Assembly (NCBI RefSeq): GCF_026914265.1 | Contig: NC_069133.1 | Coordinates: forward strand, 48,545,355-48,609,354 | DNA length: 64,000 nt | DNA from: Mya arenaria | Lineage: Eukaryota | Direction of reading: 5' to 3' | Shown: piece by piece, positions 985-53,606 of the stretch | How positions within the stretch are numbered: position 1 is the stretch's first letter | How the letters are laid out: each line of letters begins with the position of its first letter | Translations under genes and position numbers: made by a program | The notes under the pieces: model-generated | What the model saw: only the letters and a program-made list of their open reading frames with translations | Databases searched by the model: none | What the model was told of the DNA's origin: nothing

Positions 985-1740
<756 letters not shown>

Positions 1741-26165: not shown

Positions 26166-26189
26166 GGTTAGAAGGCGACTAGCCGACCT

Positions 26190-30138: not shown

Positions 30139-30141
<3 letters not shown>

Positions 30142-30209
<68 letters not shown>

Positions 30210-30218
30210 GTAGTAGTG
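30142..30218. repeat. (ATT)n microsatellite, the short orthologue of the 985-1740 array
   Basis: Seen directly. Same flank as in block A: gtataaacgcagtaagtt. Confidence 0.9.
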
Positions 30219-32154
30219 GTGTATCAGTCACTATCGTTCATACAAGTTTCACAACGTCATACTATGTTTCAATCTTTGTACTCTTTTAACTTGAGGAATG
30301 AATTGCGGGGTTGATGTCATTTTCAGGGTATGAACGCAATTGGGCTGGTCAAAGTGTGTGGAGTATATTTACACCAATAGTTCTTTAATTCATTCAAGAA
30401 TTGTTAAAAAATTAATTCATTTCAGTTTAGAAAATCTTTCAGTAATCCTTTCTTACCCATTCTGTAAATAGAACGACCCGACTGTAACCGGAAACATCTT
30501 TTTAAATGACGTCACAATAACGCGGGAAAAGAACAACCACTTGAAATGACTTTTAAACGTAAAATTGCAACCCTTTTGGCAACAATACATTTAAAATATA
30601 ATAAATTAACACTTTCTTAAATGTTGATTTATATTTTACGGGACCTGCTGACAAAATACAAACAATAACAAGATCAATAGTTTTCATGTATATTGTTATG
30701 CGATGAATTGCGATCCGAACATATCCGAAGATGTTGCGGTCATCGATTCATGAACGCAATTGCCAAAAGGCATTTCATGTAAGGAATGGAAGTTGAGGTG
30801 TAAATATTGTTCTATGAACTGAAAACTGCATGTCTACTTCAGTTCTATATGATCTAGTGATTATTTCGTATTAAATCGATACTCAGCTATTATTCAAAGA
30901 AGGGAAAAGGTTATTAAAGTTTGTTTTTTATTTCATTTAATAAATATATATAATATTTACAGATTTGGGAGACCAGGACATGTGTCAATTGTTTTTTAAG
31001 TGTATACTATATATAGCTGTTAGTATTGATTCCAATTTTGGTTTATTTATAATAAGTTGTTTATGATATTTGATAGTAAGGCGAAAATCAAGGTTATTTA
31101 GCATGCCATCTTGCTAAGGTCATTATTTAATATCATGTAATGGCTTTATCATGACGTAAGCACGTATAACCAAATATTACGAACTATTAGCAATAGAACA
31201 CGCAATCATGACTAACCCAACCTTTCAACACATATTTTTGCAGATCATGTCATCCAATTCTTCGTATACATAATTCCTTATTAATATTTGCCTCTGGATT
31301 TATCCATTACAGAAAATATACATTATACATAACAATATCCTACAGAATTTATTTGCTAACATTATAAATATTTTGTTTAACGCACTTCACAATGCAAAGT
31401 GGGTAGGGAAGTCTTTAAATTTAAAACGCTTCAAAATGTATTTTTTCTTCTAAGTTAAGAGGTACAATATTATGCGAGAATATTAACACCTCAACATCCA
31501 TTCCTTTAATGAACGGCCTTACGGCAATTGCGATTATTTAACGATGAACCCAACACCTACGGATATGTTCGGATCACGAATCATCGCGTGTTTATACCCA
31601 CTGAAAATTGTTTATCTTATTATTAACTGTATTGTGTAAGCAGGCAACGACAAACTTAAATCAACATTTTGAAAAGTGTAAAAAAGGTATATGAATGTCG
31701 TCATACGCGTGTCAATGGTACGTTAAAATCAACTATAAATGTGATTATTTTTCCCACGTTATTATTACATCATATGATAAAGTGTGTTTGGTTGCGCTCG
31801 TGTCGTTCTACTTACAGAATGGGTGAGAAAGAATAACTGTTAGGTTTTTTAAATAGTTAGGTATTTTTTTAACAATTCTGAAAAGGAATAATGAACTATT
31901 GGTGTAAAGGTAAGACATAATTTGCGTTAAACCGTTTGGCAAATAATACAGGAAAACCCCATGTGATTTTTTAAATTTTATTTATAATTTCTTGAACCAG
32001 CACTCCCTCACTTTTCGGTAAATATTTTCTTAAAAGTATTTTCTGTGTATTTACATTTTAGATGATAAACTTACTTTGTTCTTATGTATCTCCATGTGTC
32101 GATTTTCTACGATGTCCTATGAACATTTATTATTGTTTCAGGATGGAGACATGA

Positions 32155-32199
32155 ATGAACGTATCAATGATTCTACGAATATGCCTAATTCTACGAGTA
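32155..32199 (+). CDS. Gene B (death-domain receptor paralogue B), first coding exon: signal peptide MNVSMILRICLILRV
   Basis: Conserved with gene A 2573-2617. GTAAGT donor at 32200. TTTCAG immediately upstream. Confidence 0.45.
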
Positions 32200-32692
32200 G
32201 TAAGTATGATAATTAGTTCCTAAGTCCCCGAAGGGTGTCATACAATATTCTCACAGTCTGTCCATCCGGACGTCCGTGTAACCGGTCTTAATTCCGTTAG
32301 TTCGGCTGTTACAAAAATGTGTCTGCACAATTACTCCTGAATGGTTTCACCTAGCTCTATCAAACTTGAGTGGTAAGATGACGAGTAGATGACCCCTATT
32401 GTTTTCGAGGTTACCAGGTCGAATGTTATGATTATAGAATTATAATATAAATTAACGGCCATCCGTTCGTCTATGCTTTGGATTTAAAATTATTCCAAAT
32501 GCATTAAAATGATGAAGTAATACTTTGAATGTATAATGATAACAATACAGCTAATGATCGTAATGATTGTATTTAACGGTTATCAGAAAAAAGAAAGCTT
32601 GAGACATAAAAGTTTAATGACAATAAAGCGCAGTGTTACCTTAAACTAGTATTAATGCACAGAGTGAGTACGGGTTTACAAATTTATGTCAG

Positions 32693-32945
32693 ATCCACGA
32701 GGTCAGTGGAGGTTTTATACCTGTGGAGTCTCGGTGTGCCAAAACATGTTCGAGACAGGAGATGGGCTGGTCCTTCAACTGTGATGGGGACAATACCACA
32801 TGTGACTGGCAGTGTGCGGCCCAGAGGAAGGATTGTCCAGAGGGCCTGACGTATCACTGCGCGGCTGACTACGAGGACTTTGAACTGCATACCGGTAATA
32901 TCAACTACTTGGAAGAATGTGCCCTGGAAAAGCCCTGCAAGAGAG
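32693..32945 (+). CDS. Gene B exon 2: Cys-rich ectodomain, part 1 (...CAKTCSRQEMGWSFNCDGDNTTCDWQCAAQRKDCPEGLTYHCAADYEDFELHTGNINYLEECALEKPCKR)
   Basis: GTCAG acceptor; G|GTTTGT donor. Three codons shorter than gene A exon 2. In frame with ORF 32723..32953. Confidence 0.7.
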
Positions 32946-33156
32946 GTTTGTAGTAACGAACTCATACGTAACACCTTGCCTGCTCTACTGTATTAGGATT
33001 TACATTCTAAATGTCGCCGTTCTTCAATTCAAACTGCTGCTAGGGGCTAATAAGCAAACATCAATGTTTTATATTTTGTACTAGGTGAGAGGCTCAGTTG
33101 ATATACGCATCTTATAAAAAATGTATTTCGATTCATATCGAATGTATTTGTTTTAG

Positions 33157-33507
33157 GTGAAGAACCAAGTATCACTTTATACGCCAATGGAGAAAAACTT
33201 CCCCCGAACAAAGCCAGGATAAATTGTATACCTTGCTCAAACAAACTCTTCTTCAACAACATAGACGGCAGATTGTCCTCGTCATATAGCAGGTGTTTCA
33301 GGCAAAAGTTTAACAAGTGCATTCGGGAGCGCAACAAAATAAACTGTGGTGAGTCCTGGCTTGAACGAAAGATGACTGACGGCTTCTGCAGGTGCGATGC
33401 AAGGAGAGGGTTCGCTCCTGAGAATGAAAACATCGAAACAAAATGTTTCTTCGCTTCTGAACTTTGTACGTTGAGGAAATGTCCGTCTACACAGGAGCTG
33501 GCTTTAA
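33157..33507 (+). CDS. Gene B exon 3: Cys-rich ectodomain, part 2
   Basis: TTTTAG acceptor; A|GTAAGT donor at 33508. 351 nt, as in gene A. ORF 33273..33521 is in frame. Confidence 0.75.
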
Positions 33508-33639
33508 GTAAGTGTTTTTAAGGAAAATTAAACAAATATTGTTATAAGATATTATATATCATATAGATAATCAAACTCGTATATTTATATGCATATAGCA
33601 TTTTCAAAGTACGATGGGCATTCAGTATGTTATGCATCC

Positions 33640-33900
33640 GGCCCCAATTTCTCGAAACTTCTTAAGTCCCTTATAACAGGATTAAGCTAAACTCGCTATT
33701 TTTGTTCTTCAATAATTTGCATAATATTAACTTCTTAAAGAGGTTTTATTCTTCGCATAGGAGTTATATTTATGATGATCTAATGAACCATTTTTCATTT
33801 ATCAAAATTCAATTTCAGTATGTATTTTATCTAATTGAAATAAGCTACTTAAGCCTGTCAAGCTTAAGAAGTTTCGAGAAATTGGGGCCCGAAGCTTGTT
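33640..33900. mobile_element. MITE-like element (~260 bp) with ~27-bp terminal inverted repeats GGCCCCAATTTCTCGAAACTTCTTAAG, in intron 3 of gene B
   Basis: The left terminus at 33641-33667 and the reverse complement of the right terminus at 33871-33897 (cttaagaagtttcgagaaattggggcc) are perfect inverted repeats. The AT-rich interior has no ORF. It is absent from gene A intron 3. Confidence 0.7.
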
Positions 33901-36900
33901 TCTATGAGTATATGTTTAACTTTAACGAGAAGGCAGGTTTGCACGCTTCAAAAATGATAGGAGGAAATTCAGTAAAATCGAAATTAAGCATATACAAAGA
34001 TTTAGTAGAGCTTGATAATTATTTAACAGTAATGCTATGAGTCAAGACATATATATCAAACCTGGAGAGAGAGAAAAAGTTGTCTTGAGAAGTTAGGCTT
34101 ATCTGCTTTCAGGGCCATGTATAAAAATGTAAGAGGTAAACGCATCTGTGTTTTGGACACTGCCACTCTTCTGTATCGTTTTTAAACGGAATAATTGTAG
34201 CTATTTTCAATCGTAGCAAAACAATAAAAAAGATATTGAAAAAAGATCTTAAAGAAATGTTTGGCAAATTAAATTGTAGGTTACTTTAGGTTTACCAGTT
34301 TTATTCAAGGGCTATGTCCATGTGGGCATCAGTTTCATAACAAATATATACCAAGATAAACACAAGGATGTATGGCAAATGATAACAAAACAGTTTAGTG
34401 ATACATGAAACAGAAATAAGAAAACGCATATCTGCATATATTTCGTTAAAAAGGCAAAGTGATATTTAGATATTAGTTATTCTAGTGGAGTATGAAATGT
34501 ATTATATTGATGTTGTTTTTTCCGCTGAATTAGGAAGATGGACAGAAGGAATTGATTAACAACTTGCACTAATGTTTCGCAAAACTAAATAATTTTAGGA
34601 GGATATTTATATCAATAGTTTTGAAAAATAAGAGTATTCTGTCTGCATATGGAATTGTTTATGTCTTTACTTTTTATTAAATTAGATTTTGTACATTGGA
34701 AAGTCATGTTTAGAGCACATGTGACATATTCTATCAAAAGGTTCATTATATATAATTAAATGTACTTTTTCAATAGGCAACCTATGATTACAAAACCATA
34801 TATAAAACTATGCTTTGCATCAGCTGATCATAAGATAAAACACGTAATTCACCGAATATTGTGATATTTGGTGTTGACCTTTTAATATTCATAATGAGTA
34901 GAGTTGAAACTAAGCAATCATTTATTTTTTTCTTAAAACCTCATAACTCAGAGCTATATATTAATATAGAAATGATCATAGCATCAATTACATCGAGTTG
35001 TAGATCAAGGTAAAAAACAATGACCTTGAAGTTACAAAAAAGAGAACATGGACGCACAAGAGCCTTTTCGTTTATTTAACTTGGCGCTATAGTTGAAACA
35101 GACACTCAGGTAGCTACTGGAGTTGTAAAAAAAATATGTCCAATCTGTTATTGATATAAATAAGTAAAAATGGTAGATTACTACATTCTTCTTTAGAGAA
35201 TATAACAAAATAATATTGGAATTGATTGCTAATTTTCACCAATTACAAAACAATGTATGGCACATAAAGCATACTGTAAACCAGAGGCTGATTCTGACAA
35301 AGTAGCAGTGCTTTCAGCATTCACCAACATATAAAGCCTTAAAATGTTTTGAATTGACTCAGATAAATCCTTATGAAGCTCAGTCAAATGTGCCACCAAG
35401 TCATTTAAGAAATAAAAACAAAATCAGAGATAACATTTCTCCTTGAAGTTCCCAAAAAGAACTTAAAAATTAATAAGATAAGCCGCCATGTCTTATTACG
35501 CAACACGTTGCATTTCCATAAATAAAGTATATACTTTTGAATACTTTATTTTTAATAGCATTACGTAATAAATGTGCTAGAGTGACACACGTCTAACTGA
35601 GACAAACGCCTTACGGTTATCAACAATTGCACCCTTGTAGGCACCCACTAATATCTTTAGAGGAAATACATGATTCACAGACCACAGTGCTGTAAATTTT
35701 TCTAAAACCAACCTGTTTCTCGCACAAATGGCCTGAATCTTCTAAAAATATACTATCTTTCTATTTATAATACTTGTAAATAATTTTCTAAAACAGCTAA
35801 ATATGGTTATACCTCTATAATTATCAGATTTATTTAATTCCCCGTTCTTGTAATGTTTGGAAAGCATTGTAACTTTATACAATGTACCATTCTTCGGGAC
35901 TAAGACTTGTATCCAAAATAAGATCGAACAATTTACATATATTGTATTGCATTCAAATCATACCAATTATCAAAATATGTTGTTTGATCTTGTCCTGGAT
36001 TCGTTTTTGTGTTATGCCTTCTTTGTTTTCATGGCAAAGATAATCAATAACTCGGGAGAACAACGCACATAATCAATAGGACTTATCCTTCTATTTTGAA
36101 ACTTTTTTACATTGCCACATCTTCCGTTAGCAATATGGATATCAAATGAATTGCACATCTCAATAAGTCTATAACCATGGTTATAAGTGATTAATCACAG
36201 GAGTGTCTTTATACAGAAATGGCTAATTTACTCAGCTAAATGTTGTCTTTTTTAAACGAAATTGGTATAAACCACACATTTATCATGACCAATGTTTTCT
36301 TCTATATGTAAATATTCCAACTTTGTTCCAAATATATCATTCAAATCATCAATCAATTAGGCATACATGACAATTTTCAGAAGCATTTGTTAAAATATCA
36401 TTTACAAAAGACTCATCAAATAATTCTACAGAACTTGATATTGACCCTTCAGGAGGAATATAAACTAATCAGAATATAACATTTGCAAAAATACAGTTTA
36501 ATCAAATGTTAACAAAAATAGTTTCAGTTGTCATAGTTTAAAACTCTTATGAAGGGAGCTAAAATAGTTTTGATCAAAACACCAACCCGACAGATTAATG
36601 TTGACATATTTGATGGTAAAAGCCAAAGATATTATATTCATCGATGTTTACAGTATCCAAATCATCAAGCTTTGTTTCAGACAAACCAGTGGCATCATAT
36701 TCAATGATAAAGTTATAAAAATCACAAAAAACAATATATCTAACAAACAACACACATTGAAGGATACAAACTTTAATAAGACAGAAACGTTAGAATTAAA
36801 CTTACCAAAAGAACAATAATTATGATAATGACTAGAACACTTGGTTATGAGACCCTAGTGAAATGACCTTCCTGTATGTCCTCATCATAATTTGCCAGGT

Positions 36901-37302
36901 CAATGATGGCTTTTAACACAATTCGTGGTGGTAAATAATAAAATGAAAACTACAGGGACAAGTCCAGCCCTGTTATTAGACACAAGGCAATGGTCTAAAT
37001 GACAATGAACAAGCCATAATGCAGCAAAATGGCGCACACAGACCTGAGTTCACTTGATGGATTGTTTAATAAAATCCTTCAAATGAACGTATTGAATCTG
37101 GTGTCAAAGGGGATTATTGTAAAGAATACATCCAACAAATAGAATTGCAACAATTTCATATATAACAAAGTTGTTACAGCAGCTAACCCATGTGTTGCAT
37201 GAATGTCTGTCATACCTTCAGTTAAGTGCTACGTATTTCAAATGACTAGTTTTAATTCAAAACGTACAAGCCATTTGTTAAACATGTATACAACAATACA
37301 AA

Positions 37303-37311
37303 TTATTATTA

Positions 37312-37366
<55 letters not shown>
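37303..37366. repeat. (ATT)n microsatellite just upstream of gene B exon 4
   Basis: Seen directly. Confidence 0.9.
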
Positions 37367-37392
37367 TTTAACTTTATTTATGTTATTTGTAG

Positions 37393-37474
37393 ATTACACC
37401 TGCATCAGCCATTGTCCAGACGGTTACCACAGAACGGACGATTCAGATAAATGTGTTGAGAGAGCAAGCGCCAC
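37393..37474 (+). CDS. Gene B exon 4: Cys-rich ectodomain, part 3 (NYTCISHCPDGYHRTDDSDKCVERASA)
   Basis: TTTGTAG acceptor; GTAAGA donor at 37475. 82 nt. Confidence 0.7.
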
Positions 37475-38159
37475 GTAAGAATTGCTTCTATTTCCATTCA
37501 TACTGTGCCCCTTGTATGTCCGATATAATTCCAACAAACGACATCTCATATTAGCCCGCGTGATCATTTTTAAGGATCATACATTGATCAAACAAAATAG
37601 TTACATTTTTAACTTTTCCCAAAAAAATTCACCTCTTAAGTCAATGGACAGAAATCAGACCCTTTCTCAAAATTGCTAAAATGATCCTGTACGTCAAAAT
37701 GCAAGGCCGATATAAGAATGAAACTGTTGTCCCTATTTGACTATATTAAAAGATCTTCTCTGAAATAAATGGTTAGAATTCAAATTAATTGGACAGAAAT
37801 GGCAATTATGGGAACCATTTATATAATTTGCTAAACATTAAAACATTTAACAACTTAATCGATAAAAACATCTACCAGAGGCAGGACCGATTTTCCCTCT
37901 GAAACCAATTTTTAAAAATCAGTATTATTTCACTCAATGATTATTGGGTGACCCTTTATTGAACAATCGCCGAAACGAAACTGGTCCGTACAAAAGCGCG
38001 GGGCTTGATTTCCGTATAGGACTATTAAAATCTTCATGAGATGACATTTTATCGTAACTATAACAAAGAAACTCCTTAAAAAATCCAAATAAACTATACT
38101 GATTTTCTAAGTGTGCGTATTAGATTTAGTTTGTTTTACTTGATAGTACTCCACTTTCG

Positions 38160-38790
38160 TTTGTAAATGCTATGTTTTGTAGTCAGTAAACGTTGTTTTT
38201 TTTCATGTACATTGTATGCATGATATGTTTGTCTAATCAGTAAACGCTTGTTGATTTCCTCGTATGTTTGATACGTTTTGTCTAATCAGTTAACGCTTGT
38301 TGACTTCCTCATTTTTTTATACTTTTATCTAGTCAGTAAACGCTTGTTTATTTCCCCGTGTGTTTGAAATGTTTGTCTTATCAGTAAACACGTGTTGATT
38401 TCATCGTTTGTATTATTCTCTTGTCAAGTCAGTAAACGCTTGTTGATTTTCTCGTTTGTATGATACTCTTGTCAAGTAAGTAAGCACGTGTTGATTTCCT
38501 CGTTTGTATGATACTCTTGTCAAGTCAGTAAACACGTGTTGATTTCCTCGTTTGTATGATACTCTTGTCAAGTCAGTAAACGCTTGTTGATTTCCTCGTT
38601 TGTATGATACTCTTGTCAAGTCAGTAAACGCTTGTTTATTTCCTCGTTTGTATGATACTAAGTAAGTAAACGCTTGTTGATTTCCTCGTTTGTATGATAC
38701 TCTTGTGAAGTCAGTAAACGCATAATGATTTCCTCGTTTGTATGATACTCTTGTCAAGTCAGTAAACGCTTGTGGATTAACTCGCATGCA
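38160..38790. repeat. Intronic 48-bp satellite, about 13 copies, well homogenised, in gene B intron 4
   Basis: Unit cctcgtttgtatgatactcttgtcaagtcagtaaacgcttgttgattt, with period 48-49 bp. ORF 38413..38796(-) is a repeat artefact. Confidence 0.9.
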
Positions 38791-38828
38791 TTTCAAAATT
38801 CAAACTTTTATCAGCATAATTATTTTAG

Positions 38829-38914
38829 AGCCAAAACGAAGACGCCAAAGACAGCTTCTTCTACAGCTGATCAAACACACACTCAGGTTACAATCGCCAC
38901 CACAACTGAAAATG
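38829..38914 (+). CDS. Gene B exon 5: Ser/Thr-rich stalk (TAKTKTPKTASSTADQTHTQVTIATTTEN)
   Basis: TTTTAG acceptor; G|GTATGT donor. 86 nt. Confidence 0.65.
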
Positions 38915-39697
38915 GTATGTTGTATTTGGATATTGTTGTGGCATAATACTGCAGTAAGATAGCCTGATACCGTTCTCGAATTGTTTTGTGTTAACTACTT
39001 TACTTTCGCGATAATTATCTAGCTATCTAGTTAATATTCGCGAAACGTTTTGGTAAATTAAATTACATAAGGCTAGAGACAGGCTTGACAGTTCTCGGAA
39101 CTGCAACTTGTTACCTTTTCATGCTTTACAATACTAACAGGTTATCTCGTTATTGTTTACGAATTCTACGTAATAAGTAACATAAACACTGGTTAACTAG
39201 ATAAGATTCGTGTAACCAATTATCTATAAATACATTTCTGTCTCTTTGCAGTATTTGGTTATCTTGTTATAATTTGTGAATACCACTTAATACGTAACAT
39301 CATAACCAAGCGACTAGATACGATTCGTGTTACCAGTTATCAGTAATATGCCACCATAGCATAATTGTATTCTAATGTTATGTTGTTGGGTTTTTTTTCA
39401 CATTGAAACACATCTATAATTGTTTGAACAAAAATGTTTTCAAGATCCTTTATCCTTTTCATTGTAGCTTCTTATCTCAAGTATATACGCTTTTAATTAC
39501 TATAATTTGAAGTATTCAAATTATATCTATAAGATCTTTCGTACTAAAAAACATCAAAATATCACCATAAACAAGCCTTTACAGGGTCTTTTGAGTGGCT
39601 AGCATGGAAATGCATTTGTTCCGAATTAACTGAATTGCATTTATGTGTATTAATGTATATCACATTTATGACATTTGCTTTTTCTCGTCTAATTCAG

Positions 39698-39805
39698 AGA
39701 AAGTTGTCGTCAGTACAAAGAAGACAAATGTTCTGGGTATAGTCATTGGAGTAGTACTTGGAACAGTTGTCGTAGGCCTTATTGCATGGATATTGATGAA
39801 GATCT
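39698..39805 (+). CDS. Gene B exon 6: transmembrane helix (LGIVIGVVLGTVVVGLIAWILM)
   Basis: ATTCAG acceptor; T|GTAAGT donor. Four codons longer than gene A exon 6. Confidence 0.7.
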
Positions 39806-41644
39806 GTAAGTAAATACAATTTATTAACGGTAAGCCTCGGTGACTGTTTTCGTTTTTAAGAAATACTTGAATATGCTTTATATCTTTACTAGTATGATAA
39901 GGGTATCTGTCACATTGTTCGATAAATTCCAATTAATAACTTTAATATGACATATTTAACTATACTGTGTTTGGTTGTTTTTTGCCGATTTTCGGCACGC
40001 TTTGATATATTAGGAATTGTCTCACATTAGAATACAACCTACATTTGCAAAAATTAAGTCATTAAGACATAGACTAAATCATTGAGATATTTTTTGCGGG
40101 TGTTTGAACGTCCGTCTACTGTTACCCATCTAATAACACACTCTCTGTGACAGACTTGGCATTGACAATATGTCAGCCAATGAGGTTGTATTCCAAGTCA
40201 GTTTAATGACCAGAAGTATTATCTTGATTAACAAGAGCTCGTTCGATACGCTAAATCAGCCCATTCCTAGCAAATAGGATTCTACTCCATGTCATCTTAT
40301 CGCGAAAATTTTATTTCGGAGAATGATTCTCCATCGAGAAACTTGCGCGCGCGAGGTTTAACTGCGAGAAAGATGATCACGACACATGAACTGCCAAATA
40401 TTTGCGCCGATCAGTTTAAAAAAAACACTGTTTGTTCTTTACGTTTAACAAAAAACTTCTTGAAAAAAAGTTATAAATGTTGTAATACGAACACTGGACA
40501 AAAGGTCGAAATTGCAACATGGGTATTGAAAGTGAAAGTAGCTATACTGAAACAAGAATGATTCGATTCGGGTAAATACGCGCCTTAATCATCGAGGTCA
40601 TAATGGTAGGGATGATATTTTAAGCTACTTTTTTTAAATGCATTCGCAAAATATGCATGTTAGCCTCTATGAATCGTGTTTTAGAGGGGAATTGTTGAAA
40701 CTAAGTTTTCAAACCTCTTTATTTTTTCGTTATATGTATTTTCAGAGACGAGTCTGCGCATTTCGTCTAATTATGCAATAATTAGTAGCAGGAACTATCA
40801 TTAAGGTTGTGTTTTTCTTGTAGCTGAGTCTTTCATCTTTCTGGCGATATTAGAGTTGTATAACCATAATAAATACATCCACACGCACGTTTTTCATAAT
40901 GCATTTTGAAGACTATATCTGCATGCACAATGTCCTTTCTTGGGGCAGATAAATATAGTAAAATATAAACATGTGCTTCAACTATAATAAATGCGTCATA
41001 TGAAAATAGAATATAAAATATTGTAAAATATAGAGAGATAATATATAAATAATATAGTATACGGTCAGTAATCTAGCGTAATAACATAGCTATAAATAAT
41101 TGTATAAATTTGGTTTGACCAACTTAAAGATAGTTCCTCCGTCACATAATTGCATTCAAAAATAGAAATGCATGCGCATATACTTGAAATTCTGCCAGTC
41201 AAAATTTAATCATAAAAAATAATGTATTTCTGGGCAAGTAAATAAATAATTAATTAAACGTTTAATCTTTTAACCTTGAATCATATCTTAGGAAAATATA
41301 CTTGTTATTTGTCGTGATTGTCATCAAATATTGTCGAAATTCGCTATGTCGAACTCCGTTATCTCGATGCTCTGAATATGTTGAACTTCATTCGATTTTT
41401 TCCGTTTAATCATACACTTAATACATTTCGGTTATATCGAATGTTCGTTATCTCAAAATATTTTCCAAGATCCCAAAGGCTTTGACTGTGTATGAATTTA
41501 CCAAATTAATCTTTAAATGTTTACATATATTTGTTCAGAAAATATAGAGGCATATTATAAGTGAATCATATACGTACTATATATACATTTGGTTATTCAA
41601 TATCATCAAGACTTCCAACGTATATTTTTCCCTATGATTTTTAG

Positions 41645-41749
41645 ATTGGCACAAAGAAATTATTAGGAAGGAGTACAACGAAAATGGAAGGAAAGAGGCA
41701 GCCAGATTAATGGTGGAAAAAGCACTCTGCCAATACTCTTCCTGTTTAA
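41645..41749 (+). CDS. Gene B exon 7: juxtamembrane segment (YWHKEIIRKEYNENGRKEAARLMVEKALCQYSSCL)
   Basis: TTTTAG acceptor; A|GTAAGT donor. 105 nt. Confidence 0.7.
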
Positions 41750-41936
41750 GTAAGTTTTTATCAATAAAATGTGTACCAATTTATAAACGTTATCAACAGG
41801 GACATTATTTTTATTTCAAAATTCCGCAAACTTTCTGAACAACCCTCGTAAAACTTTAAAAACATATTTTCCTGACCTCCTGGGCATATATTATATGTTA
41901 ACTAAATTGCTTATATCTATGTAATATTTTTTAAAG

Positions 41937-42014
41937 AGTCACAGGGAGACTCGGATGAAAACAACCAGAATCGTGTTAATCTTCTTACACACGTCGAACA
42001 AGAAGGCAGGGGAG
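41937..42014 (+). CDS. Gene B exon 8: linker (KSQGDSDENNQNRVNLLTHVEQEGRG), single copy
   Basis: TTTTTTAAAG acceptor; G|GTAACT donor. 78 nt against 117 nt (x2) in gene A. Confidence 0.6.
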
Positions 42015-42177
42015 GTAACTGCAATAATGTTTATTTTTTCAAATAATTGTTTGAAAGTACTTTCAAAACGAAGAAACCGAAACGAAAATCTTGTCGTTCG
42101 AAATGTTAAAGACATATTGTTAAGTAAGATTTATTTATACCAACAGGCAGTCGAAATTAGTTATATATAATTTATAT

Positions 42178-42236
42178 AAAGAAACAAATTGTTGAAACAT
42201 TAAATACATGTAAATGTTTCAACAATTTGTTTCTTT
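42178..42236. repeat. Perfect inverted repeat with 24-bp arms (aaagaaacaaattgttgaaacatt ... aatgtttcaacaatttgtttcttt) and an 11-nt loop, in gene B intron 8, ~95 bp upstream of the death-domain exon
   Basis: Seen directly. The rest of this intron aligns with gene A (9850-9900), and there the second arm is missing. Confidence 0.85.
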
Positions 42237-42329
42237 AGAGATTGACTTACGTAGTACAAACGATTGTCTTGAGAAACAATTATTAATATTATTAATTGAT
42301 TTTTGAAAGTTTCATGATTCATATTTTAG

Positions 42330-42614
42330 TTTCTTGGAAAAGAAAAATACCAAGTGACCGAGAACTATGGAACGTTGCGTCGCTCATTGGAGAAAACTGG
42401 AAAGGTTTGGGTTTAGATCTGGGGCTCAGCAGAGTCACGATACACCACATTGAATATGACAACAATATAAATGGTCATATTGATGTTGTTCATCGTATGC
42501 TGATAGAATTGCGCAACTCCAGACCTGATGCAACACTAAATGATTTAAAGGAAGCAATTATTCGGTCAGGCGTTGACTTTAACTGGGGCTCTGAAAAAAA
42601 TCAGGAGCTTTACG
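42330..42614 (+). CDS. Gene B exon 9: death domain (...RELWNVASLIGENWKGLGLDLGLSRVTIHHIEYDNNINGHIDVVHRMLIELRNSRPDATLNDLKEAIIRSGV...)
   Basis: TTTTAG acceptor; G|GTAGGT donor. About 50% identity to the gene A death domain, with death-fold positions conserved. Confidence 0.75.
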
Positions 42615-42913
42615 GTAGGTGTTCCAGTTTTATCTTTTCTTAAAACTAAGCATTTGCCGGTGTTTCAAATATAGGTAAAATGTTTGGCCGATTTCGCTTT
42701 TGTGACCACATTTTAATTACATTAGATTGAACCAGATCAAGAGTTTATTTCCTTTTCATAACAACTTTATATTGTAATATATAGTTTGTTTCACATTCTC
42801 ACGACCGTCCCTGTAAAATTCCGATAACCCCTTCTTTCCCAATTAGTTCATCTGTATAAAATACTTGTATTTCTATATACTATTGTTTATCAATTACTTC
42901 TTTTAAAACATAG

Positions 42914-43809
42914 ACGAGCGTGATCAAAACGCTGCTTTGAATGATACTACAGACGAACATGACCAAAACGCTGTCTTGAATGATTCTATGGATGAACAGG
43001 AGCCAAACGCTGTTTTCAATGATTATACTGACGAACGTGGCCAAAACGCTGTCTTGAATGATACTACGGTCGAACGTGAGCCAAACGCTGTCTTCAACGA
43101 TTCTACGGACGAACGTGGCCAAAACACTGTCTTGAATGATACTACGGTCGAACGTGAGCCAAACGCTGTCTTCAACGATTCTACGGACGAACGTGGCCGA
43201 AACGCTGTCTTGAATGATACTACGGTCGAACGTGAGCCAAACGCTGTTTTCAAAGATACTACGGACGAATGTGGCCAAAACGCTGTCTTGAATGATACTA
43301 CGGTCGAACGTGAGCCAAACGCTGTTTTCAAAGATACTACAGACGAACGTGGCCGAAACGCTGTCTTGAATGATTCTACGGTCGAGCGTGAGCCAAACGC
43401 TGTTTTCAATGATAGTACAGACGAACGTGGCCGAAGCGCTGTCTTGAATGATTCTACGGTCGAGCGTGAGCCAAACGCTGTTTTAAATGATACTACAGAC
43501 GAACGTGGCCGAAACGCTGTCTTGAATGAATCTACGGTCGAGCGTGAGCCAAACGCTGTTTTAAATGATACTACAGACGAACGTTGCCGAAGCGCTGTCT
43601 TGAATGATTGTACGGTCGTGCGTGAGCCAAACGCTGTATTCAATGATTCTACGGACGAACGTGGCCCAAACGCTGTCTTGAATGATTCTACGGATGAGCT
43701 AGGCATTAACGCTGTCTCGAATGACACTACGGGCGATGGTGACCGAAACGCTGTCTTTATTGATATTGAGACGAACAGCAATATCGATGTTGAAGGTGAC
43801 AGCTTGTAG
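42914..43809 (+). CDS. Gene B last coding exon: expanded acidic repeat tail (~10.5 copies of a 26-aa / 78-nt unit, NDTTVEREPNAVF-NDSTDERGRNAVL), stop at 43807-43809
   Basis: CATAG acceptor. ORF 42937..43809. The gene A homologue, 10507-10730, has about one unit. The gene A C-terminal residues (...SRTDETQF) are out of frame or lie after the stop in gene B. Confidence 0.7.
42937..43750 (+). repeat. Coding minisatellite: 78-nt unit made of two 39-nt half-units, about 10.5 copies
   Basis: Seen directly. The antisense ORFs 43023..43781(-) and 42880..43278(-) are artefacts of the repeat. Confidence 0.9.
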
Positions 43810-46099
43810 CAGCGGTGTCAGTACTAGCAGCATAGTCAGTACTAGTAGCATAGCTACTACATCAAGGACAGATGAAACTCAAATGTAACACTACTTATTA
43901 AGTTTGCATTTGTTGTGTATGAGTTCTTAAGTTACAAAAGTTACTGTCGCAGGTTTCGACACTAGCCGTGTCCCGGGACCCAAAGGACAGCATTTTTTTT
44001 GGCGAGACTCAAGAGCCTTCAAGTCAGATGTCCTAATTGTGCCATATTGTTTTAGCAGAAAAATTTAGATAGAAACCCAAAATATATATTAAGTGCAATC
44101 AGAAATCAACAGTCGGATTCTTGGAAAGTAGTATTGGTGTCGAACATTGTGCTGTGCAGCAAATACACGAGTGGTCAAACACTTCTTAGATTATAATTCA
44201 AAGAAGCTGCAAATGTTGTAAATGATGATGGCAAGAATTGTTTCCATGTACAAAAATGAATTCGTCATAATGGATATATGCAATTTTTTAAAGTGGTCGT
44301 CATCTGCTGATTGGCTAATCATGAAGAAGCATGTGAACTATTAGCACACAATATAGTTTAATTATAATAAACGGAATTTGGACAATTCTTGAAGAAGGCA
44401 ACATTTAAACGCAGCTGTACGTTATTCCATTACAGCCATGCAACCTCAGTGATGTGTATGTGCCCATCGTCTTTGAGTGTATCAAAATGGGTCAGTCGTG
44501 GGTATGTTGGCATGAGTTTATGAAACTTGCTCAAACTGGGTAATGTTTCCTACTTTTAAGAACAAACTTCAAACATATATTAATTTGAACAAAATGTTTT
44601 GGGCATACTAAGTATTGTTTTGTGACATTTTAAAATACATGTTAACAGCTGTTATTTAAATTGTTAATGATGTTTGACTATTATTGCGATCATCTATCAT
44701 CTTGTTCGCATGGTCAGACCCTACAACACATGAGCGAGTCCCTGTAAATATGTTTGTGTATCTGCTTATGCCTAATCAATTGCTTTCTGCAGTCAAACTG
44801 CGTTTATTAAATGAATTCACAATGGTATTTTTATATCAGATATTGCTAAACATGTGCAATTACTGGCGAGCATTTGTAGTATATGTGTATGTGGTGTTCA
44901 TGTGTTTTTGTTTATATTTATCGTTTGGGCCCTTACCTTATGCCTCTAAAGTGGGTTTATTTTTTTTAATTTTCAACTACTGACATTGTCACATCAGTCT
45001 TCGTTGTATAATTGTACGCATATCATTTCAGCTGTTATAGTAGCGTCTGTATTAAGATATAAGTATACCATTGTGTAATTTAACTTCACATTCAACATTA
45101 TCCATCATATTGCTTCAGCTCAAAACAAATAATTATATCAAATTGTACAGATAATTCATCTTTAGAACTTGTCTTCATGCATGTTTATATGAGTGTATAC
45201 ATACAACTTATTGAAAATTATACTATGGCTGTTAAGTTTAGGGTTAAAATAGCTTTAACATAGAAAGAGTATGTTTAAACTTTTGTCAAGAAATTCTTAG
45301 TGTTGAAAGAATAACTCAAATTAATTTTGAGCATAGAGAACTAGGTATAACACCATCAGGGACTAGAAGAGTTGTAAATGTGATGTGGTATTGGTTCATC
45401 AGTTTAGAATATAATCATATCAAATAAGTTAAACAGTTTATACAGCCTTACAGATATTCATGTACAAGACATCCGAAATAATCAAATTTAAGGCCATCCT
45501 AATCTTTATGACTTTTAATATGACTATATGTTATGTTGTTTTTGTGATAAACTTTTATTCTGGCATCATGCATAACATACATTTTACAATATCATATATT
45601 TTATATCAATAAAAAATAAGTTTAGAGGTGTCTGTTATATAGATATTACTCCAATATTGATATTGGTATATGTTGCACATGAGATGGAAATGTTTGTTTT
45701 TCGTTTAGTTACCTAAGGAAAAAATAAAGTTTTGTAAAAAAAGGGGCAAACATGTTGTTTTTTTAAGTCAAATAAGAAAATAAAAATCCAATAAAGTAAG
45801 AGATGTAAGTAAAATAATAAAACATGTAATAAAACATGAAAGGTTACCTTGAAAAATTATTTCAATTTATATTGATTTGGTTCCATTTTAGGTCATGTAG
45901 CTGTATTTTGCCCTTAGATTCTGCCAAACATCTCTCTTTTTTGTTTTCTTTGTTTGAGATATATGACAAAGCTTTCAAAAGCTGGAATATCGTTTATAAG
46001 TTTACATTTATGAATATAAAATTTTGATAATAGGAAAATAAAATTGATAAGCATCACTCTCGGAGTCTGTTTCTCTATAATTCCAAAAGAGACATTTTT

Positions 46100-49000
46100 T
46101 AATGTTATTTCAGTTTGAATATTGTTCCTGTCAAGGAATAATTTAAATTTTGACCAGAAATGTTGTACTTTGGAACACTCCCATAAAGATGATTTATATC
46201 CTCAATATACATATTGCAGAAACCGCAGAGGTTTGAATTTGCGAGTTTATATTTAAACAACATTTTGTTTACTGGCAAAATCCTCTTAATATATTTATAC
46301 TGAAAGCTCCTTAATCTGTTTTCGATAGTGCAATAAAAACAGTTTAGATATATACTTTTCCATTCTAAAAGCATGAATTCATTTTCCCATTTTACTTCTG
46401 GTTTGTTGACTATTTGGCCTTTATGCTTGTTTATGTAGTTTTCATATAAAAGTCTGTTCGGTTTCTTTATTCTTAGCATTCTGTCAAGCAGTAGATTATT
46501 TGTAAGCGGTTGTGTAATGGTATGTAAATCAATATTTTTAAGTTCGTCTTTCCAGTTAGTTGGAATGCAAGAAATTAAAGCATGGTAGTTTAAAAATTCT
46601 GAAGGGTGTAGATCATATAAATTTCTAAATTGCTCAAAATCATAAAATCTGTGTCTTCTAAAATCATAGAAGTGTTCAATATACTTAATTCTTCGCATAA
46701 ACTAGGTCTTAAAAAAAGCCGGCTTGCTATTTATATTAATAAACGAGTTATTCCATTTCGGAAGTATTTGTTTCGGAATAGATTTCGGATTTTAGTCGAA
46801 ATTTATCGATGTCCAACCTAAGAGTATATCTCTCAGAAAAGTATTCTTTATTATACGTTTTCTTTTAAATTTGATTCGAGCAATATTTTACTTCCGTGAT
46901 CCTGAAATTCTTGTAAATAAAACTTTTTCCAGTCGCCTTCATTGTTTTCATCTAATAGACGTGTTAACCACCCTGCTTTCAGCGAATGTATATATGAAAA
47001 AATATCAGTCATTTTAATTCCTCCCCCTTCATGATTATTGATTAATGTGTGTCTAGATATTTTATCAGGTTTCCCATCCCAAATAAAATTAAACAGTTTT
47101 TGATTAAGTACTTTAAGGATATTATCTGGTGGGTTTCAAAGAACAGTCAATGGATAGATTATCTTTGGCAACGCGTATGTCTTAATAAAAGTCACTTTGC
47201 CAAGTAATGAAAGGTTGTGTTTCCTCCATCTATCTAAGCAGGTGTATAATTCACGTAGTTTGGAGAAATAGTTAAGATCAAAGGTTTTGTGTTTTTCATT
47301 TGTGAATATCATTCCGAGAGTGCATGCTTTATCAGATGTCCATGTAAAATTATTGCGTTTGCAATAAACAACATTAGTGTCTTTTAAAGAACCAATTCTA
47401 AGAATAAAAGATTTCTTTATGTTTAGTTTTAGACCAGATATACTACTAAATTTGTCAATAGTTTCTACAAGTTTTTCAAATGACTTTTTTGTGTCGTCAG
47501 TGATAAACGTTGCATCATCGGCAAACATAGTATTTTTTAAATCTTCAATTGCTACAGTTATACCTTTAATTGAGTTGTTTGATCGTACGGCAATGGATAA
47601 CATTTCTATAGATATAATGAACAGGTAAGGGGATAGTGGACAGCCTTGTCGTACACCTCTTTCAATGTCGAAGAAATCGGACAGGTGACCATTATTCGAA
47701 ACACAACTTTTAATTCCATTATAAAACGTAAAAATCCATTGTATTAGTGAGCTGCCGAAATTGAAGGAATCAAGTGTCTTCATTAAAAAAGTGTGATTTA
47801 AACTGTCAAAAGCTTTTTCAAAGTCTGCGAAGAATAGCAGTCCTGGATTGTTATTTTCGTTTAAATTATCGATCGTCTCAAAGAGAAGCCTAATGTTTTC
47901 ATCTAGTATGTATCTGCTTTTAACAAATCCAGTTTGAGATTTATGTATAATAGAAGGCAACACATTTTATACGGTTTGCTATTGCCTTTGTGGTTTTTTT
48001 GTAGTCAATGTTAAGAATGAAATTAGTCTCCAGTTATTTAGTGATGTTCTTTGTCTTTTTTAGGAATAAGGTTAATAATACCTTGCTTTTGAAGGCCAGT
48101 TAAAGTTTTGTTTTCGAAAGAGTAATTGATAAAATTCAGAAGGTAAACTTTCAGATCCTGCCAAAATATTTTATAAAACTCAGTTGTTATTCCATCTGAT
48201 CCTGGGCTCTTGTTATTTGGCATATCTAAACGGGCTGTTGCACATTCATTTTCCGTCAATAAGCCTTCACATGATTGTCTCTGTGTGTCTTTTAGTTGAA
48301 TTATATTTTCACGTTCACCAAAGAATTTATTTATATCGTTAACATCAATATTATCATGTTTATAGAGTTTACTGTAAAAAAGGTTTGTATGTTAGTATAT
48401 CTTTAGTTTTTGTAATTTCATTTCCATTTACAGATAGACATGTTATAGTTTTCGTTTCACTTCGTTTCACTTCTTTTTTTTCTCTAAATTTGACAATATT
48501 TTGAGTTTTTATCCATACCATCAATTTGAGCTGCCTACGACCTTATATATAAACCCTGTGTTTTAATTCGGTGTATTTCTTCTAAACGATTTTTCATTTC
48601 TGTAAGAGTATCTAAGGTAGTATAGTCCGTATCAGTGTAACTTATTGAAAATTCAAGTTCTTCAATATCATTAATCAACTTTGTTTCTTCTAAAGCTTCT
48701 GTTTTCTTTTTGAAAGAACAATATTTAATAGTAGCATATTTCTTTTAATTTCTTTTTGATATTTATCATCAAGTAAAACTGAATTATTTATTTTGAAATA
48801 TCCTGGACCACGTGGTTCAGATAAAAAGTTCATTTCAAAAGATACTATTGAGTGGTCTGACCTTAGACCAGTAGATATTTTACATTTCGAGATGCAATTT
48901 AAAATATTTGTAGAGACCAAAAAATAGTCCAACCTGCAAAATATAGGAGGCCTGTGGTTTGAATGCCAAGTAAAATGGCGAATGTCTGGGTTATTTAACC

Positions 49001-49450
49001 GCCACACATCTTTAATATCATAATTATTGATTAATTTTTGAATTATATCTCTACTTTTACAATGTGTTTTATTGTGACTGTTCTTTTTATCGTTTTCAAC
49101 ATCAATTACTACATTAAAATCACCTCCAATAATCATGGTTTCATCTTCTTTATCGTTAACAAAATTTTGTATTATTTTAAAGAAATCGTCATCGTCATTA
49201 TTTAGTCCATATACATTTAAAAAAACACGTTTTTTCTTGGATGTTTAACTTTAGATATTGTAATCTTCCAATTATTAATTCGTTAAGCTCTATTATCTCA
49301 TAATCTCTATTTAACAAGATGCCTACTCCTTGATTATTTGAACAATTGCCGCTTAAATAAATAATATTGCCCCATTCTCTTTGCCATACCGTTAGATCAG
49401 AACTTGTACAATTCTTGTGTAATTCTTGTAAAAGAATATATCATAATTAT
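46100..49450 (-). mobile_element. Non-LTR retrotransposon (LINE) with AP-endonuclease (APE), reverse-transcriptase (RT) and C-terminal Cys/His domains, broken into four or more ORFs by frameshifts
   Basis: The APE domain spans ~48690-49450 on the minus strand, with the ORF 48690..49136 showing ...IIGGDFNVVID... RT motifs are present: ...GFVKSRYILDE..., ...FADFEKAFDS..., ...GVRQGCPLSPYLF... and ...FADDATFI... (47136-48259). The C-terminal ORF 46105-46698 has a C..C...H...C signature. Confidence 0.85.
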
Positions 49451-50449: not shown

Positions 50450-51600
50450 TAGTGACAGGTAAATCCAAAAAAGAAACTGGAATAGATCTAATTCCTCCGA
50501 ACTAGCACAAGCTACCCCTATTTTCAAGAAAGATGACCCCTTTATTGAAAAGAACTATAGAACAATAAGTATTTACCAGCACTTTCCAATATATATGAAC
50601 GGGTCATTAGTGAGCAACTGATTTGTCATTTTTTGCCCTTTCTTGGCAGCTTTTAAAACTGCATTTTGATGTCAAATTACTCTGTTAAGGCTGGTGGTAG
50701 ACTTGAGAAAAAGTCCATGATGACCTTTCAAAAGCATTTGACTGCCTGCCCCATGATCTCATCTTAGGCAAGCTTAATGTATATGGTATCTCAGCCCCAG
50801 CATGTAAACTTATGCACAGCTATCTTACAAACAGAAAACAACGTGTCAAACTTGGTCAAATAACCAGTGCGTAGGACTACATACTGAAAGACGTGTCACA
50901 AGGATCATTAATAGGGCCTCGAGTTTTCAACATCTTTTTCAACGACATCATCTACTTTATCAGTAATGCAGCTTTGTATAATTATGCAGATGACAAAATT
51001 CTTTATGTGTGTGATAGATATCCTGATGTTGTAAATACCACTATTGAAGAAGAGAGAAACAGTTTGATCAACTGGTTTACTTCCAATCAAATGCAGGCTT
51101 ACCCTGACAAATACCAAGCAATTTCTGTGGGCTCAAAGTCTGAAATAAAACAACTAAATATACTTAATCACACTATTGTTTGTGAAAAGCTAGATAAATT
51201 TTTAGGCGTTGAGGTAGATAGTTTATTAAATGTTGGTGCCTAGATTTCTAAAATGTGCGAAAAAGCAGCTATGCAACTGAATATCCTTCAAAGACTAAGC
51301 AAACTTTTGATAGCAATACTAGGCTCATTATCTTTAAATCTTTTATCTGATCCAAACTCAACTATTGTTCTGTTGTTTGGCATTTTTGTAACACGACCAA
51401 CACAGAAACTTTAGAAAAGATTCAATACAGAGCTCTTTAAATTGTTTTTAAAGATTACACCTCAACTTACGAACGTCTTCTTCATAGAGTTCAATATCCA
51501 ACATAGAATCTGAGCAGGGTAAGATACATCGCTATTAAAGCCTACCAATGTCTGAACGGTATCTCACCCGAATATGTTCAAAACCTTGAAACTTTAAAGA
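50450..51600 (+). mobile_element. Degenerate LINE reverse-transcriptase fragment (CR1/L2/RTE-like), with frameshifts
   Basis: ...ATPIFKKDDPFIEKNYRTIS..., ...[17 protein letters not shown]...[13 protein letters not shown]..., ...SQGSLIGPRVFNIFFNDI...YADDKIL... match RT domains 0 to 5. A conserved 3' tail ...KAYQCLNG... follows. Confidence 0.75.
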
Positions 51601-52343: not shown

Positions 52344-53398
52344 TTATTCAGTGAAACACTCAAACGTCATTAACGCTTCTTTTCCCGTGAATGCGTTCTT
52401 TGTCATCACTAGCAACTCCGTATCCCCGAACATAAACGTAGTTGTTATATCTTGTTCTTCAAACGGAATGTCCAAGCTGTTTTCCAGTGTAATTGTCCCT
52501 ATTAGTTCACATTCGGGGTCTGTTGTGTACTCGGGGCTCACCTGTGTGGTCCTGTAGATGGGTGTGATGGATATTTCACTGTTAGGAATACTCTCCATGG
52601 TAACCTGTTGGTCTACTCTCACCTCCTCGTTTATCCTCACGTACACATCGAAACATTTAGGAACATACCAATTTCCATTCATCCAAACCGTCTCCTCCTG
52701 ATATTTCTTTTCATCAAACATTCGATACACTTCTGTCCCATACGTGTACTTCATCAGCCTAGAAGAGACAATGAAGGGGTTGTGTCCAAACCTTACGGCG
52801 CCTTTCAACACGGCGAGGCCCGCGTCAGGAGGAACGATCAGTCTCACGCCGGGTAATTCATTCCTCATTCTCTTATGAACGTAAAGGCTTTCACCGAAGC
52901 CGCCGACAAGAATAGCTGTTTGCACGCTTTTCATATTTGGTTCTGCTAAAAGAGACTTTATATGATGAACCAACTTATCTATTGGTCGTTCAAACCATGA
53001 TTGGACAAGTACTGAATCAATCTTTAGCTTGTCTTTGCCCTTTTGTGTGATGGAATGTTCCTGTACTTTTAAGGCCGTAATTCGTTCCTCTAGGGAAATC
53101 GATGAATACTTGCACGCAAGGTCCCTCAGTGAAGCAGAAATACGAACAATTATCTGCGTTGTTTTGTCAGGTTCAAATGACCGTTTCTTGTATTCAAATT
53201 CCCGAGTGACGTCAAAATAATCGCTCATTTCCGTATTTCGGAGGTCAGTGAGAGCTTTTTCTCCGAAAAGTTCATTCAACATTTTCACATAATTTTCATC
53301 CACAGATATGCCTCCCCATGGACCTCCACTGGCTTTGTGGATTTCCTTCAGGGTTCCGTCTGGTTTCCTCTCATGAACAGATATATCGGCCGTTCCTC
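52344..53398 (-). CDS. HSPA12-like (atypical Hsp70 family 12) last coding exon, (G)GTADISVHERKPDGTLKEIHKASGGPWGGISVDE ... FECFTE*
   Basis: The minus-strand acceptor ...ttaaatcaag|gagg is at 53399-53400. The reading frame stays open to the stop at 52344-52346. The N-terminal 62 aa of the ORF-track protein 52344..53585 are intron read-through. Confidence 0.7.
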
Positions 53399-53606
53399 CT
53401 TGATTTAAAATAAATATATTTGTTTTCGTTTTATATATGTATGTATAGGTGACTGGTTGAGCAACATTCCAGAAAAAAAAAACTTTCGAGCGTTTCATTA
53501 TATTGCAATCAAATAAATTAGAGAATTGCGACAAGAAACCGTGAACGAGTGAAGCTTTGCGACAGATATAATACTTAAAAAACATGATTTAATAAATGTT
53601 CCCGAC

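Follow-up and report, generated by a model that had tools for sequence, protein, structure and literature searches.

Coding minisatellites, or in-frame variable number tandem repeats (VNTRs), include the 39-bp/13-aa VNTR of GP1BA, the 48-bp VNTR in exon 3 of DRD4, the 60-bp VNTR of MUC1, and the repeats of yeast FLO1. Bivalves, for their part, have undergone lineage-specific expansions of death-fold immune and apoptosis genes, and the receptor p75NTR has a C-terminus (...SPV) that is a class I PDZ ligand. We know of no death receptor with a repeat of about 280 aa between its death domain and its C-terminus. Here we analyze a 64,000-nt stretch of the genome of the bivalve Mya arenaria (NCBI RefSeq assembly GCF_026914265.1, contig NC_069133.1, positions 48,545,355 to 48,609,354 of the forward strand; here called the window, with all positions below counted from its first letter). 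It holds two paralogous genes, A and B, of which gene B has a long in-frame tandem array in its last exon. Gene B (LOC128210999) is one of three tandem or recombinant paralogues, together with gene A (LOC128211945) and P0001 (LOC128211946), each encoding a predicted type I membrane protein whose Cys-rich ectodomain is lineage restricted and whose death domain is cytoplasmic. We consider it on balance probable that the array is a young, tolerated, near-neutral in-frame expansion that has given a disordered acidic tail to an intact, fast-evolving, lineage-specific death-domain receptor, and that a separate 10-nt frameshift has removed a conserved motif from the same protein.

The in-frame array of gene B and its origin

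The array lies in exon 10, the terminal coding exon of gene B (42914 to 43809, plus strand, including the TAG stop), which was delimited by its AG acceptor at 42912-42913, its phase-1 junction with exon 9, and its identity to the RefSeq model. Tandem Repeats Finder (TRF) reported a repeat at 42915-43764 with a period of 78 nt, 10.9 copies, 90% matches, 0% indels, and a score of 1192. Each 78-nt unit consists of two 39-nt (13-codon) modules. In the coding register, the array begins with an 8-codon partial module, ERDQNAAL (42916-42939, plus strand; homologous to KRHQNAAL in gene A and ERDQHADS in P0001), and continues with 21 full 13-codon modules (42940-43758, plus strand; about 10.5 units of 78 nt) that are delimited by TRF, the module table, and comparison of the units. 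Two module types alternate, with consensus sequences NDTTDERGRNAVL and NDSTVEREPNAVF that differ at 8 of 39 nt. A core, N-A-V-[LF]-N-D-x-T, is nearly invariant over the 21 modules and is recognizable in the modules of gene A and P0001. TRF and the module table thus agree with an earlier, sequence-only reading of this DNA, which had described about 10.5 copies of a 78-nt unit encoding alternating 13-aa modules in the last exon of gene B. The array is followed by a unique coding sequence, IDIETNSNIDVEGDSL (43759-43806, plus strand), homologous to P0001 NDTKTNNTIDIEAD and gene A VDNEMNNTLNARVE up to the frameshift described below.

The frame that starts at 42916 is open for 297 codons to a TAG at 43807-43809 (C-terminus GDSL*) and is the sole sense frame fully open across exon 10, the other two having 14 and 37 stops. 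Exon 10 joins the death-domain exon via a phase-1 GT..AG intron, and the reading frame is continuous across the junction. An array-specific 20-mer, allowing up to 3 mismatches, matched 15 times in the window, always within the array (0 matches in 100 shuffles). We are dealing, then, with a head-to-tail tandem array of a unit in the range of about 10 to 100 bp, divisible by 3, within an exon that is coding by annotation and has a continuous frame. On these properties, it appears to belong to a well-known class, that of coding minisatellites or in-frame VNTRs.

Exon models were built with P0001 as the template and with splice sites read directly. Gene B comprises 10 exons with GT..AG at every intron and no internal stop, encoding 762 aa. 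Upstream of the repeat exon are exons 1 to 8 (32155-32199, 32693-32945, 33157-33507, 37393-37474, 38829-38914, 39698-39805 [transmembrane], 41645-41749, and 41937-42014) and exon 9, encoding the death domain (42330-42614; Pfam PF00531, 83% identity to the P0001 death domain), all on the plus strand. The model is identical at 762/762 residues to XP_052771325.1, a protein not named "LOW QUALITY PROTEIN," the RefSeq model having needed no frameshift correction. The repeat exon of gene B is, in other words, already present in RefSeq as part of an uncharacterized protein, but it is undescribed. Gene A likewise comprises 10 exons, with GT..AG throughout and no internal stop, encoding 543 aa; it corresponds to LOC128211945 (586 aa), in which RefSeq adds the second copy of a duplicated exon 8 and places the start codon 4 residues upstream. 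By self-comparison, gene A (approximately 50 to 12,540) and gene B (approximately 28,160 to 45,440) form a colinear tandem segmental duplication with 68 to 86% identity, in a window of 34% G+C content with spliced genes. Exon 8 differs between the two copies. In gene A the 117-nt exon is tandemly duplicated (8915-9031 and 9296-9412), both copies being included in LOC128211945 (+39 aa), and in gene B its 5′ end is shortened to 78 nt via a different acceptor, with the frame kept.

The gene B protein is laid out as a signal-like N-terminus, a 23-Cys ectodomain, one transmembrane segment, a basic juxtamembrane stretch, the death domain, and the tail. Two statements of the sequence-only reading about this tail are borne out, namely, that it is cytoplasmic, as follows from the predicted topology, and that it is distal to the death domain, which the Pfam scores and the family-profile matches identify in exon 9. 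Against a Pfam Death (PF00531) cutoff of 22.6 bits, gene A scores 38 to 41 bits, P0001 22.9 bits, and gene B 21 to 22.2 bits. A profile of the family matches the death domains of RIPK1 (E = 1e-4), FADD, and CRADD in the Protein Data Bank (PDB). The family as a whole thus belongs to the death domain superfamily, with gene B alone marginally below the Pfam cutoff. A single-sequence AlphaFold2 model of the gene B death domain had a predicted local distance difference test score (pLDDT) of <50, so the six-helix fold is not confirmed there.

The homologous exons of gene A and P0001 reveal how the array arose. Gene A has two full modules, NNTPDEGEKNAAT and NDIPDEGDKNAVS, at 10533-10610 (TRF, 39 nt × 2.5), and P0001 has about 1.6. 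The sequence-only reading had given gene A about one degenerate unit, and gene B is indeed expanded relative to gene A. The gene A modules are identical to the gene B consensus modules at 25 to 30 of 39 nt, and one stretch of gene A exon 10, the unexpanded comparator (10507-10730, plus strand, with an intact ...SRSRTDETQF* terminus), aligns to both ends of the gene B array. Measured to the shared ancestral stop, exon 10 spans 975 nt in gene B and 224 nt in gene A, and the difference of 751 nt equals 19 × 39 + 10. Because the modules of gene A are homologous and its flanks align to both array ends, the array grew in situ from ancestral coding modules. Insertion of a foreign satellite is ruled out by the homology between the gene B modules and those of gene A exon 10.

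None of the 78-nt units is identical to another. Neighbors in the core differ by 2 to 5 nt and edge units by 10 to 22 nt, the differences rise with distance along the array (Mantel r = 0.51, reached in 0/5,000 permutations), and the longest exact repeat inside the array is 72 nt. The uniqueness of the units and the distance gradient point to stepwise local duplication. The ancestral tail had about two copies of the 39-nt module, as gene A and P0001 still do, and gene B gained 19 more modules (741 nt, 247 aa) as the two-module 78-nt unit underwent successive local duplications, probably through unequal exchange or replication slippage. As the unit is a multiple of 3, the frame was kept at every step. 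A second, homologous minisatellite of 48 nt is present in intron 4 of both genes, with 11.6 copies in gene B (38229-38778) and about 2.1 plus 2.5 copies in gene A (4992-5093 and 5235-5352). This intronic array too is larger in gene B, which has hence grown at two independent arrays.

The encoded tail has a net charge of −46 and contains 14% N, 13% D, 11% E, and 11% T, consistent with its earlier description as acidic and Thr/Asn-rich. The size proposed at the time, about 270 aa, was too small for a tail of 297 aa, of which about 281 aa are in modules. By its composition, with high net charge and low hydropathy, the tail falls on the disordered side of the charge-hydropathy plot (H = 0.385, |net charge| = 0.155, boundary −0.078), with the death-domain control on the folded side. 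The suggestion that the tail is probably disordered agrees with this plot; AlphaFold2 did not confirm it, the solenoid that it models failing an antisense control (see below). The product would be an acidic tail, rich in Asn, Asp, Glu, and Thr, that extends beyond the death domain and is most likely disordered.

The frameshift and the out-of-frame C-terminus

The distance between the shared [I/V]D[I/N]E anchor and the stop that both genes have in common is 120 nt in gene A and 130 nt in gene B, and the P0001-type length would be 138 nt. The alignment gap and length arithmetic place the net change of +10 nt versus gene A (−8 nt versus the P0001-type length) at approximately 43805-43814 (plus strand), the exact position being ambiguous. 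After ...IDVEG, the annotated gene B frame reads DSL and then stops. The ancestral C-terminus is still recognizable as an out-of-frame relic, TACSSGVSTSSIVSTSSIATTSRTDETQM* (43799-43888, plus strand; tblastn with P0001), with the ancestral TAA stop at 43886-43888. In the +1 frame, the relic is 66% identical to the P0001 C-terminus over 29 aa and ends at the ancestral stop position, the openness of these 29 codons not being significant alone. It contains an 18-nt tandem duplication (VSTSSI × 2; 43817-43853, plus strand; TRF) that is common to P0001 but not gene A. The +10-nt shift leaves the conserved ...SSGVSTSS...ETQ[F/L/M]* end out of frame in gene B, and the sequence-only reading had correctly noticed that the GDSL* stop precedes the residues homologous to the gene A C-terminus.

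A change of +10 or −8 nt is not what a 1-nt homopolymer slip would produce, which makes a simple sequencing error improbable. A cryptic intron that would restore the frame was also considered and rejected because inspection revealed a single GT..AG pair near the shift, spanning 14 nt and in the wrong phase. Farther downstream, an AATAAA/ATTAAA-type hexamer is present at 44366.

The last three residues of gene A (TQF) and P0001 (TQL) follow the C-terminal [S/T]-x-hydrophobic pattern; gene B has the equivalent TQM only out of frame, its annotated end being DSL. The conserved ETQF/ETQL/ETQM end has the form of a putative class I PDZ ligand. In Fas, the C-terminal SLV binds Dlg1 and FAP-1 and reduces formation of the death-inducing signaling complex (DISC) (PMC6219722). 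A net +10-nt change just after the array, separate from its growth, has swapped the Ser-rich segment and ETQ[F/L/M]-COOH for ...GDSL-COOH, and if the conserved end is a binding site, gene B would have lost that site.

Constraint on the modules and alternative explanations

Relative to the two module consensus sequences, the array contains 42 distinct variants, 11 synonymous and 31 nonsynonymous, for a neutral expectation of 24 to 29% synonymous. This variation fits omega = 1 (p = 0.74 to 1.0) and rejects the omega of 0.35 found for the ectodomain (p = 0.0003 to 0.005). The open frame was discarded as evidence of coding or constraint. Only about 2% of the possible changes create a stop, the absence of any in 42 variants has a probability of P = 0.41 to 0.49, and two antisense frames across the array are also largely open, making 3/6 frames in all. 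The amino acid sequence of the array would therefore seem to be under no detectable constraint, and the tail is best regarded as a tolerated, near-neutral gain in length, an entropic tail or spacer, rather than an evolved docking array.

A number of observations weigh against this interpretation. The NAV[LF]-ND codons are depleted in nonsynonymous variants (8/31 versus an expected 6/13; p = 0.03, post hoc), and as the NAV[LF]-ND core is common to the gene A and P0001 modules, some motif-level constraint is possible. The units are young, which limits the power of a neutral-looking ratio to reveal weak selection or selection on length or composition. The submitters' MAKER annotation, for which they combined their Trinity transcriptome with a repeat-masked genome, ends gene B at 139 aa (MAR_015999) and has a partial model for gene A. 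The two pipelines thus disagree on gene B, at 762 aa versus 139 aa, which calls for caution in annotation. Finally, the exact copy number and the +10 nt are those of the reference assembly, and the coding status is that of its annotation.

The first alternative is that the modules are selected docking or phosphoacceptor sites which multiply the recruitment of partners to the receptor, making the tail a functional multivalent scaffold. The near-invariance of the N-A-V-[LF]-N-D-x-T core over the 21 modules, its persistence in gene A and P0001, and the weak post hoc depletion just mentioned would all fit such a role, as would the 20 CK2-type [ST]xx[DE] matches in the tail. These matches, together with 17 NxS/T sequons (irrelevant in the cytoplasm), are nonetheless to be expected from an acidic, Thr-rich composition. 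No TRAF2 or TRAF6 consensus was found in the tail, the synonymous/nonsynonymous ratio is neutral overall with ectodomain-like constraint rejected, the closest paralogues work with about two modules, and the other Mya death-domain relatives stop soon after the domain, with unrelated tails. We regard this alternative as unlikely, and the sequence-only reading's idea of multivalent docking or phospho-sites finds no support in the motif content or in the dN/dS ratio (nonsynonymous to synonymous substitution rates) of the modules, which fits 1.

The second alternative, to which we give a similarly low probability, is that gene B is decaying or unexpressed, at least in its 3′ part, and that the array is effectively noncoding and owes its open frame only to a unit length divisible by 3. 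Neutral variation among the modules, an openness expected by chance, and a frameshift that removes a C-terminus conserved in both paralogues are what a degenerating copy would be expected to display. The MAKER model that stops at 139 aa, a Pfam Death score just below the cutoff, and a LINE (long interspersed nuclear element) about 2.3 kb downstream point in the same direction. Masking of repeats can, however, by itself truncate a repeat-bearing gene in MAKER, and the RefSeq model was made without frameshift correction. The 10 exons of gene B are intact, with GT..AG introns and no stop in 762 codons despite a dS of about 0.3 to 0.5 from gene A. Between the two genes, dN/dS is 0.35 for the ectodomain exons 1 to 4, 1.03 for the cytoplasmic exons 7 to 9, and 1.14 for the death-domain exon alone. 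The constrained ectodomain argues against decay; a cytoplasmic ratio of about 1 could be read as decay of the signaling half.

A three-way count of lineage-specific residues weakens the latter reading. In the death-domain exon, 36 changes are unique to gene A, 3 to gene B, and 1 to P0001; in the ectodomain, the counts are 40 for gene B, 9 for gene A, and 6 for P0001. The high A-B ratio hence reflects two diverged death-domain types, and the gene B death domain, without excess lineage-specific changes, appears from these counts to be as conserved as that of its closest relative, P0001. As the pattern flips between ectodomain and death domain, P0001 is itself a recombinant, A-like in its 5′ part and B-like in its 3′ part. 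For such a mosaic to arise, tandem copies must have recombined or undergone gene conversion, the breakpoint lying around exons 5 to 8. The comparison of the death-domain exons of genes A and B (9943-10218 versus 42330-42614; dN/dS of about 1.14 at a dS of about 0.32) also indicates that the signaling domain changes far faster than the ligand-binding part, suggesting positive or relaxed selection on one death-domain type.

A further possibility is that the array is a length-polymorphic, tuned element. The variable acidic disordered tail would then modulate death-domain oligomerization sterically or electrostatically, or act as a multisite kinase substrate, and the frameshift would remove a PDZ-type anchor. 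We hold this to be a long shot. If true, alleles of a clam-specific receptor would differ in death or immune signaling, which could be relevant in a species with transmissible leukemia.

An assembly or polishing artifact, either an inflated copy number or an erroneous +10-nt frameshift, is very improbable. The reference assembly was built from PacBio long reads of clam MELC-2E11 (Hart et al. 2023) with 10x short-read polishing, and such polishing can introduce errors inside repeats. No independent copy of the sequence was found by exact-protein look-up of P0001 and P0002 in assembled contigs, by the word-index search (which is repeat blind), or in a metagenome scan with the array 20-mer (0 matches). 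But all of the 78-nt units are unique, and their variants are common to neighbors in an ordered gradient, which, coupled with long-read assembly, makes an assembler-made expansion unlikely. The 850-nt array is, moreover, far shorter than PacBio reads, and the size of the frameshift (+10 nt versus gene A, −8 nt versus P0001-type) is not that of a 1-nt homopolymer slip.

Single-sequence AlphaFold2 modeled the array as regular beta strands with a 26-residue periodicity (pLDDT 65 to 81; predicted template modeling score [pTM] 0.51). The antisense translation of the array, a meaningless-repeat control, gave a more confident solenoid (mean pLDDT 83.2, pTM 0.81), and it is documented that AlphaFold2 turns near-perfect repeats into solenoids that are unrealistic yet confidently scored (Pratt et al. 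2025, PMC11795689). With the control scoring above the real array, the model carries no weight. A Foldseek search of the PDB with it retrieved nothing at E ≤ 0.001, the weak top matches being generic solenoids, and the model was rejected as evidence of folding. A genuine beta-solenoid, in which each 78-nt unit would form one 26-residue coil of a rigid rod on the death domain, is accordingly very improbable: the strand periodicity, the solenoid nature of all the weak top matches, and the Asn and hydrophobic positions that recur with the repeat are outweighed by the antisense result, the known over-prediction on such sequences, the empty PDB search, the net charge of −46 with low hydropathy, and modules without amino acid constraint.

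If the near-neutral expansion is the right explanation, the locus would be a worked example of a tandemly duplicated immune-type receptor family in which growth of a minisatellite, together with a small frameshift, has made the cytoplasmic tails diverge. It would also illustrate that an open frame across a repeat is not evidence of selection, nor an AlphaFold2 solenoid on a near-perfect repeat evidence of folding. The array could serve as a ready-made, probably hypervariable, Mya arenaria marker and would be of greater importance only if copy number affects signaling.

The receptor family, the window, and known systems

The Cys-rich ectodomain (CDGDNxTCDWQCAAQR...GEEP...RCDAR.G[FY]AP...), encoded by exons 2 to 4 of gene A (3017-4659) and gene B (32693-37474), belongs to no Pfam family. 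Many Mya arenaria paralogues carry it, as does Dreissena polymorpha (P0004-P0030), with Death, CARD, or other cytoplasmic regions as fusion partners. TNFR_c6 (PF00020) had no match in the exon peptides at E ≤ 1 or in the full proteins at E ≤ 0.01, a TNFR_nem match on a 33-aa exon 4 peptide was subthreshold (16.8 bits versus 27), and the ectodomain matched no PDB sequence. Membership of the ectodomain in the TNF receptor superfamily was rejected in this sequence-level test for want of Pfam support for TNFR cysteine-rich domains. Judging from the shared ectodomain, these proteins constitute an unnamed receptor family, which may interest bivalve immunology more than the array itself.

When a profile was run exhaustively against 1.84 billion representatives, only two entries matched its tail part, namely, P0001, which represents the cluster, and P0014, a fragment of gene A. 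The sole other match reaching the tail region, P0091, was weak (E = 1.8e-5), with an unrelated tail, and other Mya death-domain relatives end soon after the domain and have unrelated tails. By this search, the repeat tail appears restricted to the three-gene cluster of A, B, and P0001. A word-indexed protein search missed XP_052771325.1 when queried with the verbatim death domain plus array or with the last 98 aa of gene B, and found it with the N-terminal part; its negatives for repeat-rich queries hence cannot show absence from other proteins. A literature search on these loci, or on coding repeats in bivalve death-domain genes, found nothing specific.

Elsewhere in the window, the LINE-type element downstream of the gene B stop is a non-long-terminal-repeat retroelement on the minus strand (46108-49244), with RVT_1 (89 bits, 47139-47966) and endonuclease (48693-49244) domains. 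A possible reverse-transcriptase-like fragment on the plus strand (50875-51240) was recognized by eye only. Other repeats are a minisatellite with an 18-nt unit and about 52 copies, lying where the sequence is locally GC rich (25236-26168), in which a 318-aa Pro-rich open frame of the PVPGPT type has no Pfam match; about 241 copies of (TAG) upstream of gene A (1020-1742); a 31-nt × 17.6 array upstream of gene B (28901-29445); and (TTA)23 and (ATT)21 runs flanking or within the paralogues (30140-30208 and 37302-37365). Long open frames on the minus strand (52347-53588 and 55386-55727; e.g., LVAAFDFGTTYSGYAF) look by eye like HSP70 family 12 (HSPA12) proteins, an unconfirmed resemblance with no Pfam match at E ≤ 0.001.

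Set beside the bivalve death-fold expansions, the locus differs in that its ectodomain is without a Pfam family and in that no literature mention of these loci was found. It resembles them in its tandem paralogues, its fast cytoplasmic parts (dN/dS of about 1.1 between A and B in the death-domain exon), its mosaic paralogue, and the fusion of the clam ectodomain to Death or CARD in both Mya and Dreissena. As in Fas and p75NTR, the clam protein is a predicted type I receptor in which a short tail follows the cytoplasmic death domain, and the last three residues of gene A and P0001 fit [S/T]-x-hydrophobic-COOH, a likeness of sequence pattern. Unlike in Fas and p75NTR, the ectodomain was not found to be homologous in sequence to TNFR cysteine-rich domains, and gene B ends in GDSL-COOH, the motif having been left out of frame.

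From the known VNTRs, the gene B array is set apart by its two-module (78-nt) higher-order unit, known here from one reference sequence, and by its host, an uncharacterized bivalve death-domain receptor with the repeat in its cytoplasmic tail and not in an extracellular mucin-like or adhesin stalk. In other respects it resembles the known coding minisatellites: the array is head to tail and inside a coding sequence, its units are of 10 to 100 bp and a multiple of 3, it grew by frame-preserving unit duplication with a homogenized center and diverged edges, and it occupies a low-complexity segment that tolerates length change.

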